The position numbers and the translations under genes were made by a program. Below are positions 2,593 through 29,210 of a stretch of DNA of 32,000 bases, one piece after another. Within the stretch, counting starts at the first letter, position 1. Each line of letters opens with the position of its first letter. The notes beneath the pieces were generated by a model. The model was not told the origin of the DNA and made no database searches. It was given only the letters and a program-made list of their open reading frames with translations. Source of the stretch: Candidatus Absconditicoccus praedator (GTDB lineage: Bacteria > Patescibacteriota > Gracilibacteria > Absconditabacterales > Absconditicoccaceae). The stretch lies in the NCBI RefSeq assembly GCF_021057185.1, contig NZ_CP054059.1, positions 420,001-452,000 of the forward strand. Direction: 5' to 3'.

Positions 2593-3852
2593 ATGAATTT
2601 ACCAGAAAGTTTTTCTTGTAAGTGAGTTATGAAAGAATTGAAAAATCATGGTATAGAAAAACAACAAAGAAAACAAATAATGAAAGCTCTTGATTCTTAT
2701 AGAAGAAAATCTATTTTAGTCGAAGAAAAAAAGCTAAAAGAGAAATACTCAGAAATTATACAAATTCAGGAGTCATTTATGGATGAGTTTGAAAAAATAT
2801 TCCAAGAACAAGAATGTTATGAACTTTTGAATTTTTTTGAAATTCTTATGAACTTTTTCAACAACAAATTTTCTACAATGGAATTAGAAGTTTATGAAGT
2901 CACAGAAAATATTAATTGAATAAATAATTTAAGGTTCTGCAAGCCTAGAAAAACCTCTCACAAAAAACAAGATAAAACCACAGACGAAATAAGCTACTTA
3001 GAAGAAAAAGCTTTGAATTCTGAAAACAAAGAACTGATATACAAAATTACTGATATATCTAAAAAACAAGAAGATATAGCTTGAATAAAAATTCAAACCA
3101 ATTATAAAGAAACTTTTTTGATTACCATAATTTTATCAGAGAACTTAAATTCAAGCAACTATCAAACTTTTTTGGAAGAATTTGTAAGTTTAAAAAATAT
3201 TTTTGAGGTTAGTAGATTGAGTTTTTTGTTGGAAGAAAAAATTGCTGCTCTTAATAGTTCATTTAAAGATAGGTTAACTGGACTATTTAATAAAGCATAT
3301 TTAGACACAAAGCTTGATGAAACATGATGGAGTGCTATTTATATTGATATAGATAGCTTTAAAGAGCTAAATGATACTTATGGACATTGTGTATGAGATT
3401 ATGCATTACAGCTTCTTTCAAAAGCATTAAAAGAATCAGTAAGATATGAGGATAAAACTTGCCGTTTATATTGAGATGAATTTATGATTCTTGTAAATAC
3501 TTATAATGGCGAAGAAGTGAAAAAAATTTTAGAAAGAATTAGGCAAAAAGTAAATGGGATATCTTTTGAAACTGAAAACAAAAAAAACAAACAAATAGAA
3601 ACAGTAGATTTATCAGCTTCTTTATGAATTGCTATTTGAGACAACAAGAAGACAGTTAAAGAACTCTTAAAAGAGTCTGATGCCTTAATGCTTGGAAGTA
3701 AAACCACCTCTTGAAGTCTTTATAGGCTTCGCCAACAATTAGAGTCTTGCAAAGAATCTGACAGAGAAGAAGTTGTTGAGAATTTATTGGATGTAATATC
3801 TTACAAACAGTTGGTAAGAATTCTTGCAAAAAAAATTTTACAAAAAGAATAG
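2593..3852 (+). CDS. GGDEF-domain protein (putative diguanylate cyclase) with YGDEF motif, RxxD I-site and an N-terminal domain of unknown function
   Basis: The ORF runs from ATG 2593 (alternative ATG 2629) to TAG 3850-3852. Motifs are DRLTGLFNKAYLD, IYIDIDSFKELNDTYGHCVGDYAL, RYED (3442-3453) and RLYGDEFMILV (YGDEF at 3469-3483, with Gly encoded by TGA). Confidence 0.85.
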
Positions 3853-3858
3853 CATAAT

Positions 3859-6800
3859 TTATTCTTGTTTTCTGAAAAACTTAGTAATCCATCCCAAAAA
3901 TCTTCTAATAAATCATTTCTTTTCTTTGATAAAAAACTCATAATAAATAGCTGGTATTACAAACAAAGTCATCAATCATCCAAATGCAAGTCCAAAAATT
4001 ACGGTAAATCCAAGACTTGCCCAGAACTCATCCTCCAAAGCCAATGGTAGAATACCAAAGATTGTAGTTAATGTAGTCAAAATTATTGGTCTAAGTCTAG
4101 ATCTTCAACTTTCTAACAATGCTTTCATATTGTCTTCTGTGTTTTCAAGATTCGAACTTATCCTATCTATTAGAATAATAGCATTATTTACCACAATTCA
4201 TGCCAAGGCAACAAAACCAATACCAAAAGGCATACTATAAGGGTTTCAAGTAGCCCAAAGTCAGACATTTACTCACAAAACAGCCAAAACCACTGAATAT
4301 AGTATCATCAAAGGTTTTGAGAATGAATTGAACTGCAAAACCAAAATAGAAAATATTGCCAACATTCAAATTACAAATGCTTCAACAACTCATATTATAA
4401 GTTCTTGATTTTCTTGGGCTTCTCAAGCTTCTTCAAAAGATATTCATTCTGGATAGTCATACTCTTGAGCAAACTGCCTGAAATCTCATTGAATTTCTGC
4501 TGTTCTTGCTTCATATCCCCTTGCTAAGTCTCATCATATAGAAAGCACAATATTTTGATCTCTCCTGTTGATTTCATCTACAGCTCTATCTAACTTGACT
4601 TCAGCAACATCTCCAAACTGCACACCTTCTCATACTGGAATATTGTCTACATCAGCTGGATTAATTTTATCTCAGAACTGATCAGATTTTACCACAATAT
4701 CAAACTCATCTTGTCACCTTGATATAGATCAAATTTTATTTCAATCTAAATATGAAAAAACCTGATTACTTACTACATCCGGAGTAAGATCAAATTCTTC
4801 CAAGGCATAATTGTCAAAACTATAAACATACTGTCCTGGCAACTCATCAGAAGATATGCTAATATCTCAAATTCATTCTCTTCTTTCTAGCCAATACTCA
4901 AAATCATCACCCACTTCCAAAAGTTTGTCAAAATATTCTATTGAGTCAGCAACAAGCCTAACTCATATAGGCTCTGAGTCTTGGGGTGGTCATCCATCTT
5001 GTATCTGAGTAGATATAGACATTCATTTGTTTTCTAAGTGTTGGAGTTTTTCTAGTACTTTTTCTTCTACATCATATACATTTCAAAGATTCATATTTTC
5101 CCTTTCACTTACAGACAACAGATTGATATCCAGTCATATAGTATCCGAATCCACATAATAAGAGTAATCTTCAATTTCCATAATATCATTGAACTTGCTT
5201 TCAAATCAAGAGGTATACTCACTCATGTACTCACTACTAATACCACTTGGTCATTCTATGCTTACTTGCATAAAATCTGTATCAGAACTTGGAAACAAAG
5301 TAAAACCTATCCTTGGTGAAAGAAAGATGAAACTCAAAACAAGTAAAACCACAGGGATCCATATAGTAGTAAGTCTGGTAAATTTATTCCTCATTATGAT
5401 TCACAATAGGTTTGCATATCAGTCTTGCAAAAAATCAAAAAACACATCTTTTTTCTGTTTTCATTCAGTTTTTTCGTATTTTCATTTCCTATCATGCTCC
5501 AAAAGTTCTCTTTCCTGCTTTGACAAAAGCTCTTCTGCTCCAGGATTCCCAAAATAACATTTTGGATCTTTGTTTAGTTTATAAAAAATTGCTGAATTGA
5601 GGGTCAAAGACAAAAGCCAAGCTGCAAAAACTACCGAAAATACAGTGACTGGTATATAAGCTAAGAAATTTCACATCATTCCCGGCAAAAATATCAAAGG
5701 CAAGAAAACAGCCAAAGTAGTAGCAGCTCAAGAAGTCATAGGTCTCCAAAGATCTCTAATTGCCAAAAGTATAGCGTTTTTGGGTGAGTATCACAGCCTA
5801 ATTTTTTGACTGGCTCACTCTACTATCACAATAATAACATCTATAGCTATTCAGAAACTAAGAACCAATGAAAAATTTGTTAAAAAGTTCATTGTATACC
5901 CCAACTGATTTAGGACAAAAAAAGTAATCATAAAGGCAAGGGGCAATGCCAAACTTGCCAATATTGACTGTTTGAATCATATAAACAAAAACAACAAAGC
6001 AAAAACAAGTACCAAAGTTATTAGTCAATTTTCTGCCAAAGTTTCATAATCTTCTATAATAAGAGCTGCCAAATCTGATGTATAAAAATAATTGATTCAA
6101 GCAAATTCTGTAGAGTTTATTAGTTTGTCTATCTCAGACTTTGCAAAATTTGAAGCTGCAAAAATACTGGTTTGTTGGTCTTTTTCAAACTCCAAACTTA
6201 CAGAAGAATATCTTTTGCTATCCTGAATAAGTCAGGCAAATCTTTTGGCATCGTCATCGTATTTTTTCTGATAAGAAGCCACATCTTGTAATTTCACATA
6301 AGATCAATCTTGACCATGAATCACCAAATCCATCAACTCTTGGATATCATCAACTTCTCACTCTATCCTAAAATCATAATCAAAATCGTCTACTGTATAA
6401 TTTCAAAGAGGGGTGTTTGTGTGATAAGCTTCAAGCACATCAGAAATATCATTTATAGAAAGTCATATACTATCAAGTTCATCTTGGTTTACATTGATTT
6501 CATAATCATAATCTGCTGATCATACAACATCTATGTTTGCTACACCTCATCTTCATTCAAATTGATCTCTAACTTCTCTTGCTTTTTCTTTGAGTTCATC
6601 TTGGGAATAGTCTTGTGAATAAAGAACCAAATTGAATATAAGTTGATTTTCGGTTGTGATATCTGAAACTGATGGATCATCAGCATCCGAAGGTAAATCT
6701 ACTTGATCTACCTCATCTTCTACAGTTATAAGCTTTTCTCTGGGGTCGATATTGTCAAAAAGTTCTACAGTAATACTAGAAACTCAAAGACTACTTGTAG

Positions 6801-7071
6801 CATCTATTTGCCTGATTCAATCAACTCACTGCAACTGTCTTACAATCTTATCTGTAATCAAAGAGTCTATATCATCTGCATTTACTCATGCATAAGATGT
6901 GTTTATTTGTAGTACTGGAATTTCTATTTCTGGAGTACTTTCTTTGGGTATTTGATATATTGCACTACCACCAAGAAATACTATTAAAACCACAAACAAG
7001 AAAGACAGCTTATAGTTTTTTACCCAAAATCCAAAAAAGCTATTTTCCAAAGATTTGACAAACTCTTTCAT
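3859..7071 (-). CDS. RND-family efflux permease (AcrB/HAE-like, 1070 aa)
   Basis: ATG at 7071-7069 and TAA at 3861-3859. I checked every in-frame triplet and found no TAA or TAG. The N-terminus is FFGFWVKNYKLSFLFVVLIVFLGGSAIYQIPKESTPEIEIPVLQINTSY. The C-terminus is WASLGFTVIFGLAFGGLMTLFVIPAIYYEFF. Both are typical of AcrB-like pumps. Confidence 0.9.
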
Positions 7072-7096: not shown

Positions 7097-9193
7097 CTAT
7101 TGCTTTTGTAGGTAAAAGTCTTCTTCATTGTATCACCTAACATTACTTGTGATAATTTTAGTTCATTCTTCAATAGGAGTTTTTAGCAAAACTCACTTTC
7201 ATACAACCTGTTGTATTTCTACTTCTTTCTGCCTAAGTTCACCATTCTCGTATATATTTATATTGGCTTTGTTGTCTTGTACATTGCTTAAAATATTTAC
7301 TGGAATTATAGGATGTTTCATATCTACAAAAACTAATACAGTGACAAAATCTCAAAGTCTTGGGATTTCTTCCTGCAGTCTAACTCTAGCAGAGTAGTTC
7401 AGATTTTCATCTGCAGTTTGAGATATAGAGTAAAGTTTTCATATATATGATTCTCCTTGGTGCAGAATCTCTACATCCATTCACTCTCTAACATAGTCCA
7501 TTTCTCTTTCTCTAAAAGAAATTCTTATTTCATTTTCTGCTTTTCATGAAATCTCAAACAAAATATCTCACTCAGATATTTCTTGTCATTCATTTACATG
7601 AACCTGTCATATCTTACCATCTATTGGTGCTTGTACTGTTAGGTCATTTACTGCATCTGTTGCTTCTTGATACTCTATTCTTGCTGAATTCATAGCAGCT
7701 CTGGCTGCTTCTATATCCAGGTCCAAGTCTTCTTGGGCTTGTTGATAGTCATCTTCTGCTCATTCCAGTCATATTTGCGCATTTTCTATACTATTTTCCA
7801 AAGATTCCATTGTATATTCTTTGTCTTGTTTGGCTTGTTCAAGGTCGTCTATTGCATTTTCAAGAGCAATTTCAGCATTTTCAAGAGCTTCTTTTTGCTG
7901 AAGCAAAAGTCTTTCGTATTCTACCCCCAAATCATAGTCTGCTTGGTCTAGCTCATCTTGGAGTATACCTTTTTCTGACTCCATTCTTTCTATATCTCTT
8001 TTTAGAATTCTTTCTTCTCTAATATAATTTTCAAAAAATGAATCTACCTCATCTCTTAGGGTTCTTGTTTCTGATAGCGTTGAGCCAATACTTGTTCTAT
8101 ATCATCCAAACTGTTCTTTGTATCCATCAATTTCTGTTTGAGTAAAAGAAGATGATGTGATAGAGTTTCTCAAAGTTGATTCTATCTCATCTAGCATATC
8201 TCTGGTTTGCACTAATCAATCAACAAGATCTTGCACTTTTCATTGAATATTTTCTTGAGATAGATCATCAAAATCTTGTTCTTCAAGGTTTTCATACTTT
8301 CTTATGCTTTCTCTAAGTTTGTTTTCAGCTCTTATTCTTGTACTATTGCTTTTGGCTCACAAGTAAGTATCAAACCTATTGTTGTAATTTCTATTTTCAC
8401 TTGTCACACCTAATAGCTTGTCTGCTTCATAATTGATTTCATCCACCAAACTTAAATAATCGTCATAAACATTTTCTATGTTTGTTGAAAATGAGTTGAT
8501 TTGTTGCTGATTATTTGTTTCCAAACTTTCAAGTTCATCTCTTGCGTTTTCAAGTTCTTTTTCCAAATTTTCTAGTTCTCTTCTAGCAATCGAACTATCT
8601 GCTTGCATATCTCTAAGAGATCTTTCGTATTCTAACTGTTCTACTTGTTTTTCAAAATCTTGTTGAGTTATTTCATAGTCAAGTTTAGCCTGTCTCTTTG
8701 CTCTTTCCAAAGACCTAATGTTCTTTTCTAAGTCTGACTGTGTTTGTCTTTTTTCTAAATCTGCAGACTGATAGTCAAGTTCTGACTGTTCTATTCACCT
8801 TTGTAAGTCTCTTAGGTTTTTGTCCAGTTGTCTTTGGGTTTGTTCATATTCAATTTCTGCCTGTCTTAGGTTGTTTTGAGCAAGTTGTTGTTGTAATCTA
8901 TAATTTGCAACAGAGTCTTCCATTTCCAACAAGGTTTGTCATTGTGTTACTTGATCTCATTCTTTGACATTGATTGAAGATACCCTACCTGCTACTTGAG
9001 ATCATTTTTCAATATCTTTTGCTGACTGCACCCTTCCATTTTTTTTGAAATATGCTTCAGAATCAAAATCTTGTATTTTTTGTGTATCTATACTATAAGG
9101 TCTTTGTTCTTCTTCTATGTCTTCTTCTCAATCTTCACAGCCATACAATCACAATACAGTAACTAATAAAATTGCCAAAATAGCTTTTCTCAT
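7097..9193 (-). CDS. HlyD/MFP-type periplasmic adaptor lipoprotein with a very long coiled-coil insert (698 aa)
   Basis: ATG at 9193-9191 and TAG at 7099-7097. The signal peptide with lipobox is MRKAILAILLVTVLGLYGC. Lipoyl half-motifs are GRVSSINVKEGDQVTQGQTLLEMED and LTVQAPIDGKIGQVHVNEGQEISEGDILFEI. They are separated by about 420 aa rich in E, Q, L and R with heptad character. The gene lies 25 nt upstream of the RND gene. Confidence 0.85.
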
Positions 9194-11838: not shown

Positions 11839-14343
11839 ATGGAAACTAATCTTACCATGCACCACACGAACAACTCCTTAGATACAAATACAGATCTTTT
11901 TAGAAGTTTTTTTGATGCATTAAAAATTTTTGAAAAAATAGCAAACCAACATTTTAGTAAAAGCCAACTTCAAGAAATCAAAAATCCAAACACAAAAGAA
12001 TTTTTAAGACTTTTCATGTTATTTAAAAAAAAATACAATACCGACATCTCTTCTCTTGTTGATAACATTAGCAATGTTAATGAAAATGATCTATTAAATT
12101 TATTGGAATTTTTATCAAGAACAATCCAGGAAACAAATGATTATGAAGTGCAATGATTTATACAACATATGAAAAACGAACTAGAGGAGAGTTTATATCA
12201 TGAAAGCATTGGTAATGTAAACGAAGAGATCAAAACAAAAACTATAGAGAACATAATACATATTCAAAACCAAATAAAAAAATTTTTAGAAGAAAAATGA
12301 ATTGATTTCACTTCAATAGAGGAAGATTTAGACAGCAAAACATATAAACTATGTAAATACGTATTAGAAAACGACAACAAAAAAATAGTTAAGCTGATAA
12401 ATGAAATTTTTGATATGCTTTGAATAAAAAATGATACTGTTTTACAAAAAAACTTTTTAACTATAGTCAATGATTTTTTACAAGATCAAGCAAACAGTAC
12501 AAACTTAGAAAAAACTGAAAACCTTACAGTTTTGAGATTTATTTTTGTACAAATATCTAAATCCCAAATAGCAAACTCTTTAGAAGAAGCTTATAAAAAT
12601 ATCTTTAAAGAAGATGAAAGCTTACTAAATTTTAGCAGACAAGATTATTATTCCAACCAAAAAAAGGCTATTTTTCTACTAAACAACCCAAAGAAAATCT
12701 TAAGTTCTTCAGAAAAAAAATCTAACATACTATATGTTAGCAACAAAGAAAACATTTACTACAAAGTTTTCAACAACTGGGATTTAGCTCTAAGTTTTTT
12801 AAAATTAAATATTTTTGATGTGTTTAAAAATCAGCAAACAGACAAAATTACACTAGCCAACAAAATCAAAGAAGGGTTAGACTCTAAATGAGTATATTCA
12901 GAAAGATTGGAATTTTTTGCTGAGGACCTATGAGAGTCATGTTTTTTTAACCTTAAGATTTCAAAAAAACATGATAACAATAATTGATGAGAGCTTATTT
13001 CAATAATTTTAACAAAAGACAATAGCACAAAAAAAACCCAAAACACAAAAGAAACGACAACTACTACTGCCAACAACTTACCACAACAAACTAATGAAGG
13101 CGAGGATTTTCTTGATAGCAGTTGAGTTTTAAGATTTGAAAGCCTGGAAGAGGGCGAGTCTACCAAACAGGTTGCTGTTATGAAGATAAGTGACTTTTCT
13201 ATAATAAACAAAAAATATTGAGTAAAATTGTGAAATATAATACTTCAAAGAATATCAAAAACAATACAAAATTATGTTAAAAAATTTAATTATCTTGATG
13301 CTAAAAAATTGTCCACCCTAGAGTTTGCTATTATAAACAAACAAAACAGCAGTGAAACTATAGAAGATCTATTTGAAGAAATGCTAGGAGCCAAAAATCC
13401 TACTGAATGAAAGTTTTATATTAGAGAAATTTGAGAGGATATAGAAATAGATTTTAGTTGTTGAATTTTCAACAACGAAGAAAACTTAGATGTATTAGAA
13501 GCATTTGAAAAAGCACTTATGGCAATGTACCATGCCAAAAAAAACTGATCTTGAGCTTATTATTCTCCACAAATAGAACAACAAGAAAAATCTAATATAG
13601 AAAATTATTTGAACTGGAAAAGAGTAATAAGACATGCCCTAAAACAAAACAACATCACACCATTTTTACAATGAATATACGATGCACAAGATAATAATAT
13701 GCTACAGTATGAAGCTTTGATGAGACTGTATAACACTGAAACATGAGAAATTTGTTCTCCATGACAATTTTTAGACTATCTACCTATATTTGACAAAAAA
13801 CATAAAGCTTTTATGCAGGTAGTTATCAAGGCAATTAATTTTATCAAAAATGATAATAGAAAAAAAATTTTTTTGAATTTCACATCAGAACAGCTTAAAA
13901 ATTTACAAATTTACCAAATAATATCTAATCTTTTAGTATCACACAAAGTTAAATGAGAAAATGTAACAATAGAAATCCCCGAAGAAACTCTTGAGCAAAA
14001 TCATGATTATATCGACAAGTACAAAAAACTTGGCATAAAAATAGCAATAGATGATTTTGGTAAATGATACTCCAATCTAAAAAAACTATTTGAACTTTCA
14101 GACAAAATAGATTATCTAAAAGTAGACGGGTCTATAATAAGATGAATTGCCAATGACAAGTCAAAACAGGAAACCCTAAATTTAATAATGTTTTTTTCTA
14201 AAAATCACGATTTTCAAATAATTGTAGAATTCATAGAAACACAAGAAGATTATCAATACCTCAAAAATCTATGAGTTAGATATTTTCAATGATTTTTATT
14301 CTCAAAACCCAAACCGATTGAGCAAAGATTCATACAAAATTAG
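11839..14343 (+). CDS. Degenerate-GGDEF + EAL domain protein (putative c-di-GMP phosphodiesterase, 834 aa) with an N-terminal region of about 430 aa of unknown function
   Basis: ATG 11839, TAG 14341-14343, with all triplets checked. EAL motifs are QYEALMRL (EAL at 13711-13719), FLNFTSEQL, IEIPEE, IAIDDFGKGYSNL, YLKVDGSIIRG, VEFIETQED and YFQGFLFSKPKP. The GGDEF-like fold upstream is VAVMKISDFSIINKKYGVKLGNIIL...STLEFAIIN, with no GG[DE]EF. Confidence 0.88.
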
Positions 14344-15922: not shown

Positions 15923-15946
15923 AAACCCACTTCAAAGAGTGGGTTT
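15923..15946. terminator. Intrinsic terminator between convergent genes
   Basis: A perfect 9-bp stem (aaacccact / agtgggttt) with loop tcaaag. There is an A-run on the left, which gives a U-tract for the minus-strand Kazal gene, and A/T-rich sequence on the right. Confidence 0.6.
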
Positions 15947-15966: not shown

Positions 15967-17457
15967 TTAATCTTCTATAATCTCAAAAGATTCTACTACA
16001 ATTTCTCAATTATCAAATCCAATTTCTACTTGTGCATACATTAGTATATGACCATCTTCGTATTCTACTACTGCTTTTTGATCATCTATCCATTCTATAT
16101 CGGTCACAAACCAGTTACCACCAAGCACTTCCTCTTCTGGAGACAAATCTGCTATATTGTCTTTGATGTAAGGTTCATAAAAATTTCTTTGAGCATAACT
16201 TTCTAGAATATATTGTATTTTTCAGTAAATAGCAAATTCTGAATCCTGAAAAGTATAGTTTTGTTTTCTATTCTCCGCTCTGTCAGCTACTCTTTCCAAA
16301 TACTCAACTTTGTCTTGAATTGTTTCGTATCTGTTTGTTTCAAATATTTCATTCAAAGCCTTATTGAACGCATTTGTTAGTCTAATTCTTAGGATTGGTG
16401 ACAAACATTCTCATTTATAAGCTACTTGTACATTGTTTTGTTGTTCGGCAACACACTGATTGCTATAAGTTTCTCTGTCTACACCACAAACAGGATTGTA
16501 TTCCATAGTACAAGCTACTTGATCATCTTCTGAATCTTGATCATCTTGTTCGTAATCATTACAGTGGCTTATTTCTTCATTTACAGATATATCTACTTGG
16601 TCAGCAGTTATATCTTCTTTGATTTGAATTATTTTGGTTGGATAAGTAAGTGCTTGAGTTACCATACATCAATCTCAAGGAGAAATATGGTTCAATTCTA
16701 TATTGATGTTGCCTTCGTTATCCTTAGTAATATTTTCCAAGTTGATTTGATATCATCCTGTACTTCTTTGTCACATTGATGATACTACTAAAACACCTTC
16801 TAAGTCAGTAATATACTTTTCAAAATTTTCTGATGACATTCACAATTTATCTTCAATTTCTTCTTTGGTTTCTATAACATAGCTTCCTGGAGTAATTCAT
16901 TGATGTGAATACTCATTATAATGAGTTTCATAGCTTATATCCTCTTTATGGGCATCATCAATATGCTGAGTACATTTTCGCTCTTCTTGTCAATCTTCTC
17001 AATAAACATCCTCACAGTACATCTGAGTCATTCCAGCAGCTTCTCAATCTTTTATCATAACTGTATTACATCAATCAGTTGCTGCTGCACAATATTCACC
17101 ATGAGCTTCCAAGAAATCATCTTTATTATCAAAAGTTCTTGGCTCAAAGTAGTTAGTTGTATGATCACAAGTTCAATCTTGCTCACAGTCATTTATTCAA
17201 TCTCTGTTCATATCCCAAGTCCAATGCATTTCACCTTCTTGATCATAGTAAGCTTCTTCTACTTCGCACTCTCAATGATGCTTTATTTCTACATTATTTT
17301 GTTGTGTTGCAACACATTCATTTGAATATGTTTGTCAGTCTACACCACATACTGGATCCCATTCCATAGTACAAGCCACCTCATTTGCCTGAGCTATAGA
17401 ATACAATCAAACAAGATAAAATAAGGACAAACTCAAAAATAAAATAATTTTTTTCAT
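15967..17457 (-). CDS. Secreted multidomain protein: signal peptide, Kazal-like domain, Cys-rich acidic region, PrcB_C-like domain, second Kazal-like domain, C-terminal domain (496 aa)
   Basis: ATG at 17457-17455 and TAA at 15969-15967. The signal peptide is MKKIILFLSLSLFYLVGLYSIAQA. Kazal 1 (17266-17377) is ACTMEWDPVCGVDGQTYSNECVATQQNNVEIKHHGEC. Kazal 2 (16405-16514) is ACTMEYNPVCGVDRETYSNQCVAEQQNNVQVAYKGEC. The PrcB_C-like part is SSMGQRSTGGYQINLENI...PGDGCMVTQALTYPTKII. Confidence 0.8.
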
Positions 17458-17648: not shown

Positions 17649-17861
17649 ATGAGCAAAAAAACTCAAAAGTTGATTTTGGGAGTAGTACTTATTGGAGTAT
17701 TAAGTTTACTTGTAGGTATTTCCTTAATTGACGACAGCTCAACCAAAACTAAAAATAAGTCTGATTATCAAACCAAAACAGAAGAAATCTCTCAAAAGCT
17801 AAACCAAATAGAAGGTAAATTTGAAAAAAGATTAAAAAGGCTTAAAAGATACTCCGAATAA
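17649..17861 (+). CDS. Small membrane-anchored protein (70 aa)
   Basis: An AGGAG Shine-Dalgarno sits 8 nt upstream of ATG 17649. The stop is a true TAA and a terminator follows directly. There is an N-terminal TM segment (LILGVVLIGVLSLLVGISLI) and a basic helical tail. Confidence 0.65.
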   Translation: MSKKTQKLILGVVLIGVLSLLVGISLIDDSSTKTKNKSDYQTKTEEISQKLNQIEGKFEKRLKRLKRYSE

Positions 17862-17954: not shown

Positions 17955-19037
17955 ATGCACAAATACATATTTTTAGCAAGTTTTCTTGTTTTAAATTTTT
18001 TTGGTTTTTACTTGTTTCATACTTGAAAACAAGACCTTGTAGAATGAAAAACTCATACACATAATATATCAAACAATATAGACAAGGAAATGCTAACCCA
18101 AAATCCTTTGAGTATTGTGCATGAAAAAAATCAAAAACTTGAATACAAGATAAATGACAACAAAATCAAATTAATTTTCAACAACGACAACAATATTTAT
18201 GAAAACATTAAAGAAATTTCCGATAAAGACGACATAAAACAACTACTAGACAAAACACGGGAAAAAAAACACCACAAAATAGGTAAAGATTATATAAATG
18301 AAACCAGCTGCAACAAACTAAAAAACAAAAACCCTATCAACAATCCAGCTCAAATCATACAAGAAAAAATAATTCCTCAAGAAGACATTAAAAAATTCAT
18401 TTGATGCTATATATACTCAAATCCTGACCACCAAATAAAATCCAAAATTCAGACAAGTTATGAAGAATATAGAGATGTAAATATTTGATGATGACTTAGC
18501 ACCCTAAAAAATAAAACATGGGAAAAATGAGAAGTAATAAGTATTTATGATTACTTAAAGCTATTTAATTGATATATTGAATGAAGAGCCACAGTAAATG
18601 GAGAAAAAGTAATGATATGATGGTGAGGAGTTTGTGGAGTAAGTACTGCAGCATATCAAGTATTTGCTGAAGCAGTAGACATAAAAATTCTAGAAAGACA
18701 CAATCACAATATTTTAAATATAGATTCATTTGGCAGAAAATGATTTGATTCTAGTGTTTTTGGAGACTGAACAAATCCAGATTTAGATCTTGTAGCTCAA
18801 AACCAACATTGAAAAATATTTGTAGACATAATAGACAAAGCAAACAAAGAACAAAACAAGTATTCTTACTGAATGAAGCTATACTCGTGGAAACCTTTTG
18901 AAAAATATGACATCAGTTTTTCTGAAGAGTATGAAAAAAATTGAAGAACTTGTGTAGATAAAATAAAAGAACACCCAAAACAATCAAAAACCGTTACTAG
19001 CTGTTATATAGATATAATTCAAGAAGATGATATCTAA
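17955..19037 (+). CDS. VanW-family protein with an N-terminal membrane anchor (360 aa)
   Basis: ATG 17955, TAA 19035-19037, triplets checked. The TM anchor is MHKYIFLASFLVLNFFGFYLF. The VanW-like core is IGWGGVCGVSTAAYQVFAEAVDIKILERHNHN...GFDSSVFGDG...DLVAQNQHGKIFV. Confidence 0.7.
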
Positions 19038-23704: not shown

Positions 23705-26782
<3,078 letters not shown>

Positions 26783-28931: not shown

Positions 28932-29210
28932 TTAGTTACATTTTTTACAGTTTTTCCTGTGTTGTTTTGCCCAATTTACCAAAGAAAAAGTAGACACATT
29001 AAATTTTTTAGCTAGTTTTCTAGCTGATACTTTTTTGTGACAATAAAAATCAATTATTTTTTCTTTAAACTCTGGTGTATAAGTTCATCTTGTTCATCAT
29101 TGAGTATAAGTTTTGTTACAAGAAAAACATCTATATCTTTGTCATCAAGATTTTAGCTTTCAGTTTTTATTAAGTTTGTTTCAACAATTGAAGCAATTTA
29201 TTAAGTTCAT
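28932..29210 (-). mobile_element. IS1 InsA-like / IS1595-like zinc-ribbon + HTH protein (92 aa). It is a solitary ORF with no adjacent catalytic ORF, so it is probably an IS remnant or a domesticated regulator.
   Basis: ATG at 29210-29208 and TAA at 28934-28932. Motifs are CFNCGNKLNKNGKLKSGGQRYRCFSCNKTYT (Cys4 ribbon) and VSARKLAKKFNVSTFSLVNWAKQH (HTH). Confidence 0.6.

Follow-up and report, generated by a model that had tools for sequence, protein, structure and literature searches.

The Galleria protein GmSPI-2 is a Kazal domain of solved structure and an active extracellular inhibitor, which acts strongly on subtilisin and proteinase K and contains two disulfides, Cys5-Cys24 and Cys13-Cys39 (PMC4169406). 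Among microbes, EPI1 and EPI10 of Phytophthora infestans are Kazal-like effectors that block subtilases (P69B) of the partner organism (cited in PMC9904509). The Treponema protein PrcB, a lipoprotein of 23 kDa, belongs to the prcB-prcA-prtP operon; it binds and stabilises the subtilisin-family protease PrtP and is needed for PrtP accumulation (PMC8167434). Kazal and PrcB_C domains occur together in a single protein of Candidatus Absconditicoccus praedator, a bacterium belonging to the Candidate Phyla Radiation (CPR). Its gene lies on the minus strand of a 32,000-nucleotide window (the whole stretch of DNA analysed, positions 420,001 to 452,000 of contig NZ_CP054059.1) and is read with genetic code 25, in which TGA encodes Gly.

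An intact gene for a Kazal/PrcB_C protein with an export-type N-terminus was confirmed. We consider it rather probable that the product is a secreted, double-headed serine-protease inhibitor of the standard mechanism, built from non-classical Kazal domains on a lineage-specific mosaic scaffold and probably directed against subtilisin- or chymotrypsin-like enzymes. This view is drawn from sequence comparison. The modules follow one another in the order signal, Kazal-1, a module with two cysteines (2-Cys), a module with four cysteines (4-Cys), PrcB-like domain, acidic linker, Kazal-2, and C-terminal domain. An earlier sequence-only reading had proposed a secreted protease inhibitor or protease-complex partner, and that interpretation is partly supported.

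The two Kazal heads (PF00050/PF07648; MEROPS I1) are recognised by Pfam well above the gathering thresholds. Kazal_1 matches two stretches of the protein with an E-value of 5.2e-22 (78 bits, cut-off 21), and Kazal_2 matches with 1.7e-14 (54.1 bits, cut-off 22.8). The sequence-only reading had located both heads and described their motifs essentially correctly; its PVCG and TYSN elements stand, while the spacing to PVCG is C-x5 instead of C-x6. Each domain has four Cys and lacks the classical Cys I and Cys V. Neither domain shows the classical six-Cys, three-disulfide pattern (I-V, II-IV, III-VI), and the three-disulfide spacing to which the earlier reading had tied the Kazal assignment is thus not found. 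Instead, a phmmer alignment (query residues 27-64 to residues 3-39 of 2m5x) places all four Cys in register with those of GmSPI-2, and the heads are assigned to the non-classical type with two predicted disulfides. GmSPI-2 is also the best solved-structure match to the Kazal part of the protein (2m5x/4hgu, E 2.7e-8). Because this solved, active inhibitor shares the four-Cys pattern, the Kazal identity of the heads stands despite their reduced number of Cys.

Both heads carry a canonical reactive-site loop, composed of P4 Ala, P3 Cys, P2 Thr, P1 Met, P1' Glu, and P2' Trp or Tyr. The P1 residues are Met31 in Kazal-1 (codon at 17365-17367) and Met318 in Kazal-2 (codon at 16504-16506). The loops ACTMEW and ACTMEY align residue by residue with ACTLEY of the ovomucoid third domain (OMTKY3); the aligned segment of the present protein is ACTMEYNPVCGVDRETYSNQC. 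Asn33 of ovomucoid, whose loop-stabilising role is established in the Kazal literature, corresponds to N46 and N333 here, within TYSN-x-C compared with TYGNKC in OMTKY3. In Kazal inhibitors, a P1 Met or Leu suits the S1 pockets of subtilisin-, chymotrypsin-, and elastase-type enzymes.

On this basis, a mechanism can be proposed. The protein would be a secreted, soluble, and very acidic mosaic in which the two Kazal heads act as independent Laskowski inhibitors. Each head would present a rigid loop that sits like a substrate in the active site of the protease and is cleaved extremely slowly. With Met at P1 and the match to GmSPI-2 and the ovomucoid third domain, the predicted targets are subtilisin-, proteinase K-, chymotrypsin-, or elastase-like enzymes. 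The likely role would be to shield the cell surface of this epibiotic CPR bacterium from extracellular proteases of the host or prey, of the community, or of the bacterium itself. The four other modules (PrcB-like domain, both Cys modules, and C-terminal alpha/beta domain) would then be accessory, serving binding, scaffolding, or localisation.

The combination of domains is rare. The architecture search covered 5.8 billion clusters through a word index and, exhaustively, 1.8 billion representatives, and the order Kazal-PrcB_C-Kazal was found in only one other cluster, represented by P0002 (483 amino acids, 60% identity). A genome scan added a partial orthologue, L005, with 87% identity. Both orthologues come from metagenome-assembled genomes labelled "uncultured Candidatus Peribacteria bacterium". 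The same scan gave L006, a more distant Gracilibacteria relative that covers only residues 107-168 (51% identity). Among the clusters searched, the Kazal-PrcB_C-Kazal arrangement is a new architecture limited to one small clade. Next in similarity come proteins from code-25 Gracilibacteria and Absconditabacteria; these contain the same small modules in reshuffled order and have no PrcB_C. The modules other than Kazal and PrcB_C are specific to these two groups and shuffled among many Kazal-bearing paralogues. Both domain types were already recognised by Pfam and relatives had been machine-named as Kazal inhibitors; that of Vampirococcus lugosii is listed by NCBI as "Kazal-type serine protease inhibitor family protein". 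The new finding here is that code-25 CPR bacteria contain a family of shuffling modules.

The canonical loop is also kept in 51 Kazal loops from 28 related CPR proteins. P1 is Met in 33 of these, Arg in 10, Ala in 4, Lys in 3, and Glu in 1. Many of the 28 proteins combine a head with Arg or Lys at P1 with a head with Met at P1, as multi-specificity inhibitors do. Kazal proteins among the homologues come from Gracilibacteria, Vampirococcus, Falkowbacteria, Parcubacteria, Yanofskybacteria, Myxococcales, and one thaumarchaeon, so that the earlier description of Kazal domains as uncommon in bacteria was overstated for this part of the tree. In several CPR proteins (P0016, P0027, P0082, P0104, and similar ones), Kazal repeatedly occurs with DUF333 (PF03891, "putative hemolysin") and PF18915; these may be further extracellular inhibitor-like proteins. 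Paralogues of the family cluster, as seen in L013 (8001-10548), where a second Kazal protein is encoded approximately 1 kb downstream of P0014. In L012 (9680-15774), on a Gracilibacteria-like contig, the gene for P0013 adjoins a CRISPR locus of the Cas12a (Cpf1) type that includes cas1 and cas2.

The two heads of the A. praedator protein are clearly related, with 27 of 40 residues and 87 of 120 nucleotides identical over a 40-residue comparison window. The sequence-only reading had concluded from the related DNA that an internal duplication took place. The relatedness holds; a recent tandem duplication of the heads is rejected, since Kazal-2 agrees with Kazals elsewhere in the family at 27-29 of 36 positions, at least as closely as with Kazal-1 (25 of 36), and the 60%-identical orthologue already has both copies. 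Between orthologues, Kazal-1 shares 33 of 36 positions. The two heads thus appear to reflect old domain sharing.

Comparison with the 87%-identical orthologue revealed a change focused on P1, which had not been described before. Within the 123-nt Kazal-2 region, only three nucleotides differ, and these fall within the neighbouring codons for P2 and P1. ACT is replaced by ACC at P2, which is silent, and ATG by CAG at P1, which exchanges Met for Gln and is the only amino acid change of the domain. The next 435 nt contain 49 differences, so that about 14 would be expected in 123 nt where three were seen (P = 3e-4). A change concentrated at P1 would be expected of a working inhibitor head, as far as this single comparison goes. 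Constraint points the same way: relative to P0002, the best-kept parts are the 2-Cys module (96%), Kazal-1 (90%), the 4-Cys module (80%), and Kazal-2 (79%), ahead of the PrcB-like domain (59%) and the C-terminus (43-48%).

The N-terminus consists of MKK, at least 15 hydrophobic residues, and AQA followed by NE, and it forms the only hydropathy peak of the protein. A motif and hydropathy scan found no lipobox Cys, no LPXTG motif, and no further hydrophobic segment. The mature protein has 472 residues (54 kDa, pI 4.1), with 104 Asp and Glu against 30 Lys and Arg. Its 16 Cys are grouped in even-numbered sets, module by module. Because of the signal-like N-terminus, the lack of another hydrophobic segment, and the even Cys sets, the product is read as an exported, disulfide-bonded protein, and export is predicted to proceed via Sec.

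Several points weigh against an inhibitor. Secretion is predicted from hydropathy and inspection. Met at P1 is strongly conserved across the family, unlike the hypervariable P1 of classical ovomucoids, and the exchange of Met for Gln is one observation. No target protease was found in the window, beside the gene for P0002, or beside three family members including that of Vampirococcus; a PrsW-type intramembrane protease is encoded 6 kb from the Vampirococcus gene and is not a plausible Kazal target. In the literature, we found no biochemically characterised bacterial Kazal inhibitor and no paper that treats Kazal domains and CPR bacteria together. Finally, the Kazal-like domains of follistatin, agrin, SPARC, and RECK are non-inhibitory.

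The PrcB-like domain bears on the other possible functions. The Pfam PrcB_C match that the sequence-only reading had anticipated was recovered (54 bits against 24), and the place given for it is right, although the domain is longer than the approximately 16600-16850 proposed. An exhaustive HMMER search found 807 representative proteins of the PrcB family at E 1e-3 or below. In an alignment of 40 PrcB-only sequences, the family domain spans approximately 130 amino acids, and its invariant positions G67, G68, P93, and P106 are all kept in the A. praedator protein. The family motifs G-x-x-x-T-G-G-Y and S-P-G-x-x-C-x-x-T-Q-A-x-T-x-P and the C-terminal Cys are present as well, and C264 and C299 align with the conserved Cys pair of the family. 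The AlphaFold2 (AF2) model of residues 168-304 is mostly beta, with a predicted local distance difference test score (pLDDT) of 90.4. Foldseek gave no significant match of this model in the PDB (best E 0.47, ribosomal proteins, TM below 0.2), and the family profile matched no PDB sequence. None of the other 149 top PrcB matches contains a Kazal motif.

In the PrcB_C architectures of 133 of these matches, scanned with Pfam and mostly tandem arrays, the co-occurring domains were Cu_amine_oxidN1 (22) and SLH (3). Only one protease-related domain was seen, P_proprotein (the proprotein convertase P-domain, E 6.2e-5), and no peptidase catalytic or inhibitor domain was found beside PrcB_C in these architectures. 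Likewise, none of four sampled single-domain PrcB-family genes had a protease neighbour. PrcB_C is a widespread extracellular domain that shows no general link to proteases in these 133 architectures or four neighbourhoods. Orthology with dentilisin PrcB was tried and ruled out: the equivalog model NF033596 gives 34.5 bits where 125 are required, the protein has no lipobox (AQA/NE contains no Cys) and a mature mass of 54 kDa compared with approximately 23 kDa, and no prcA/prtP operon was found around the gene. The protein is a member of the PrcB_C family and not a dentilisin PrcB.

An unlikely alternative, yet the most probable of those considered, is a non-inhibitory surface or adhesion protein in which the Kazal units are structural or binding modules for attachment to a host or matrix, possibly in a calcium-dependent manner. 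Freely shuffled small modules are typical of adhesins and surface proteins, PrcB_C usually accompanies SLH or Cu_amine_oxidN1 in proteins of the cell surface, and Kazal-like domains without inhibitory function exist. The 2-Cys module adds a DxNxDGxxD loop that looks calcium-binding, and the extreme acidity of the protein (pI 4.1) would fit as well. In contrast, residues P4-P2, P1', P2', and the Asn are almost exactly those of active inhibitors, whereas non-inhibitory domains usually lose them. The best PDB matches are true inhibitors, with follistatin and agrin appearing only near the threshold (E 1e-3 to 4e-3). The only amino acid change in Kazal-2 between close orthologues falls on P1, and the protein has no anchor motif.

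A protease-handling partner is an improbable alternative. Here, by analogy with Treponema PrcB, the PrcB-like domain would bind and stabilise a secreted subtilase of the bacterium itself, and the Kazal heads would keep this protease latent until its release, as a complex for self-protection or immunity and for the delivery of a predatory enzyme. In Treponema, the subtilisin-family PrtP interacts with PrcB and needs it to accumulate (PMC8167434), and GmSPI-2, the nearest characterised Kazal, targets subtilisin-type enzymes. Since the functional precedents of both domain types are subtilisin-family enzymes only, both point to subtilases. At least two diverged orthologues keep the Kazal-PrcB_C fusion, a third being known only partially, and the relative Vampirococcus was reported to have numerous peptidases (PMC8080830). 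However, the sequence-only reading had derived a protease-complex partner from the name PrcB_C, and this name by itself gives little evidence of such a role; the protein falls short of the equivalog score of dentilisin PrcB, has no lipobox, and is not accompanied by prcA or prtP. Neither the 133 architectures nor the four sampled neighbourhoods link PrcB_C to a peptidase or inhibitor, no protease is encoded in the window or beside relatives, the PrcB-like part is less conserved between the A. praedator protein and P0002 than the Kazal heads, and no solved structure backs a binding mode.

A related and speculative idea, to which we give little credence, is that PrcB_C is a general subtilase-docking module. 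The protein might then be a three-point clamp on a subtilisin-family protease, either a lytic enzyme of its own that is held latent or a defence enzyme of the host. With PrcB_C present in at least 800 representative proteins and no solved structure for it, its fusion to Kazal domains gives a rare "Rosetta-stone" clue to what this domain does. If the docking idea is true, the function of PrcB_C would for the first time become accessible outside oral treponemes, as would the control of extracellular proteolysis by code-25 epibionts.

The gene itself is visible only in genetic code 25. Translated with this code, positions 15967-17457 of the minus strand form a single open reading frame (ORF) of 496 amino acids with 18 in-frame TGA codons read as Gly and a TAA stop. 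With table 11, the frame is split into fragments of at most 84 amino acids, and all interruptions are TGA. The whole window (GC content 22-34%) contains 364 in-frame TGA codons across 24 genes, which include those for leucyl-tRNA synthetase (LeuRS), aspartyl-tRNA synthetase (AspRS), an AcrB-type pump, and QueA; every stop is TAA or TAG. Gly is encoded in the window by TGA 364 times and by all GGN codons together 181 times, which makes TGA its commonest codon. Three observations show that TGA encodes Gly and not Trp: it stands where the TGGY motif of the PrcB family has its invariant second Gly, it supplies the Gly in the Kazal motifs VDGxTY and GEC, and it is interchanged with GGA between orthologues of the gene. 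The short table 11 fragments might suggest a pseudogene full of stops or an ORF that arose by chance in AT-rich DNA. This is already refuted by the TGA-only interruptions, which all 24 genes share, by the placement of TGA at invariant Gly positions, by an identical 496-residue protein (P0001) among public protein sequences, by the orthologues with 60% and 87% identity, by HMM E-values down to 5e-22, and by a terminator after the stop codon. The gene is invisible to standard table 11 annotation, and families of this kind are thus under-counted.

The features of the locus are collected in Table 1. The middle region consists of two separable family modules. Profile searches of PDB sequences with the 2-Cys and 4-Cys modules were empty or at chance level, and the 4-Cys module has no Pfam match. 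The C-terminal 145 residues are modelled by AF2 with a pLDDT of 93 as three helices (residues 354-438) on a four-stranded antiparallel sheet (residues 450-494). The sequence-only reading had pointed to this domain as a subject for Foldseek, which gave no significant match in the PDB; the best hits were de novo "cystatin-fold" designs at E 0.16, and a profile search was empty. A cystatin-like inhibitor at the C-terminus, considered on the ground of these hits, is unsupported.

Table 1. Features of the Kazal/PrcB_C locus in window coordinates. Identities to the 60%-identical orthologue P0002 count G/W as a match.
Feature	Residues	Coordinates	Strand	Characteristics	Identity to P0002
Complete coding sequence		15967..17457	(-)	Code 25; 496 aa + TAA	
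Sec-type signal peptide (predicted)	1-24	17386..17457	(-)	MKKIILFLSLSLFYLVGLYSIAQA followed by NE; hydropathy, motif scan, inspection	
Kazal domain 1	26-64	17266..17382	(-)	Cys C29, C37, C48, C64; loop A-C-T-M-E-W	90%
2-Cys module	77-104	17146..17229	(-)	MHWTWDMNRDGINDCEQDGTCDHTTNYF; DxNxDGxxD loop; stands alone in other family proteins	96%
4-Cys module	105-163	16969..17145	(-)	FLEAHGEYCAAATDGCNT...MYCEDVYGEDGQEERKC; lineage-specific; four tandem copies in P0004	80%
PrcB-like domain	172-300	16558..16944	(-)	Motifs MGQRSTGGY and SPGDGCMVTQALTYP; Cys pair C264/C299	59%
Pfam PrcB_C core	224-280	16618-16788	(-)	PF14343, E 1.9e-14, 54 bits against cut-off 24	
Acidic linker	301-312	16522..16557	(-)	NDYEQDDQDSED; translation, orthologue comparison	
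Kazal domain 2	313-351	16405..16521	(-)	Cys C316, C324, C335, C351; loop A-C-T-M-E-Y	79%
C-terminal domain	352-496	15970..16404	(-)	Motif YIxxNIxxLSP..VLGGxWYV...YEDGHI; lineage-specific	48% (helical part), 43% (beta part)
Intrinsic-terminator-like hairpin		15923..15946	(-)	AAACCCACT-CTTTGA-AGTGGGTTT, then T run; 9-bp stem; 21 nt past stop codon	

The gene is surrounded by genes for a UPF0047 protein, an unknown 294-residue protein, a VanW-like protein, and an MPG glycosylase, and no Kazal or other family module was found elsewhere in the window. The VanW-like protein (17955-19037, plus strand; PF04294, E 8e-11) bears a signal and is encoded divergently, and an ORF of 70 amino acids with a membrane-anchor-like segment (17649-17861) lies between the two genes. 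Other genes of the window deserve mention. LeuRS (23705-26782, minus strand; 1025 residues in code 25) contains a NUDIX domain (PF00293, E 2.6e-13, residues 382-500) directly after a truncated editing-domain match (residues 220-366, equal to profile positions 1-146 of 185), and such an insertion is unusual for an aminoacyl-tRNA synthetase. A GGDEF protein (2593-3852) and a GGDEF+EAL protein (11839-14343) are encoded on the plus strand within 12 kb of each other in this reduced CPR-type genome, a pair that suggests cyclic-di-GMP signalling. An AcrB-family transporter of the resistance-nodulation-division (RND) type (3859-7071, minus strand; E 6e-140) adjoins a 698-residue HlyD-like adaptor (7097-9193, minus strand), in which a very long Glu/Gln-rich, coiled-coil-like segment splits the lipoyl and barrel-sandwich domains. 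The pairing of transporter and adaptor is odd for a lineage that is believed to have no outer membrane. Between the AspRS and ParA/MinD-like genes lies a small Cys-rich ORF with HTH_Tnp_1 (28932-29210, minus strand; E 4.6e-7), which may be a mobile-element remnant.

Kazal domains recur in surface proteins of CPR bacteria (Patescibacteria), and in Gracilibacteria and Absconditabacteria, including the predator Vampirococcus, they belong to an expanding, module-shuffling family. If these domains are active inhibitors, they would be candidate determinants of how ultra-small epibionts survive the proteases of the host and community, or control their own.

Compared with the described systems, the proposed inhibitor is closest to GmSPI-2 in its Kazal heads. 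Both have the four-Cys, two-disulfide pattern, and loop and core are nearly identical (CTTEWDPVCGKDGKTYSN versus CTMEWDPVCGVDGQTYSN). However, GmSPI-2 is a single insect domain of 36 residues with Thr at P1, whereas the A. praedator protein has two heads with Met at P1 in a 472-residue bacterial mosaic with four other modules, and its activity is predicted only. OMTKY3, ovomucoid, and ovoinhibitor share the canonical loop (ACTMEYNPVCG...TYSNQC in the present protein) and the presence of several heads per chain. OMTKY3 differs in its six Cys and three disulfides, the protein described here being without Cys I and Cys V, and ovomucoid has no non-Kazal domains. The PrcB_C domain with its GGY and PG..TQA.T.P motifs is common to the Treponema denticola PrcB, but here it is set inside a Kazal protein. 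EPI1 and EPI10 are likewise secreted multi-Kazal proteins and would follow the same ecological logic as that proposed here; they are eukaryotic (oomycete), have experimentally known targets, and contain no PrcB-like or CPR-specific modules. Among the lineage relatives, P0003 of V. lugosii has the 2-Cys DxDxDG, 4-Cys, and YIxxNI...YEDGHI modules and a CTMEY head, with 40% identity over 55% of the query. The Kazal mosaics of Gracilibacteria and Absconditabacteria differ from the A. praedator protein in their shuffled order, in the absence of PrcB_C, and in mostly pairing a Met head with an Arg or Lys head that contains a 6-Cys insert.

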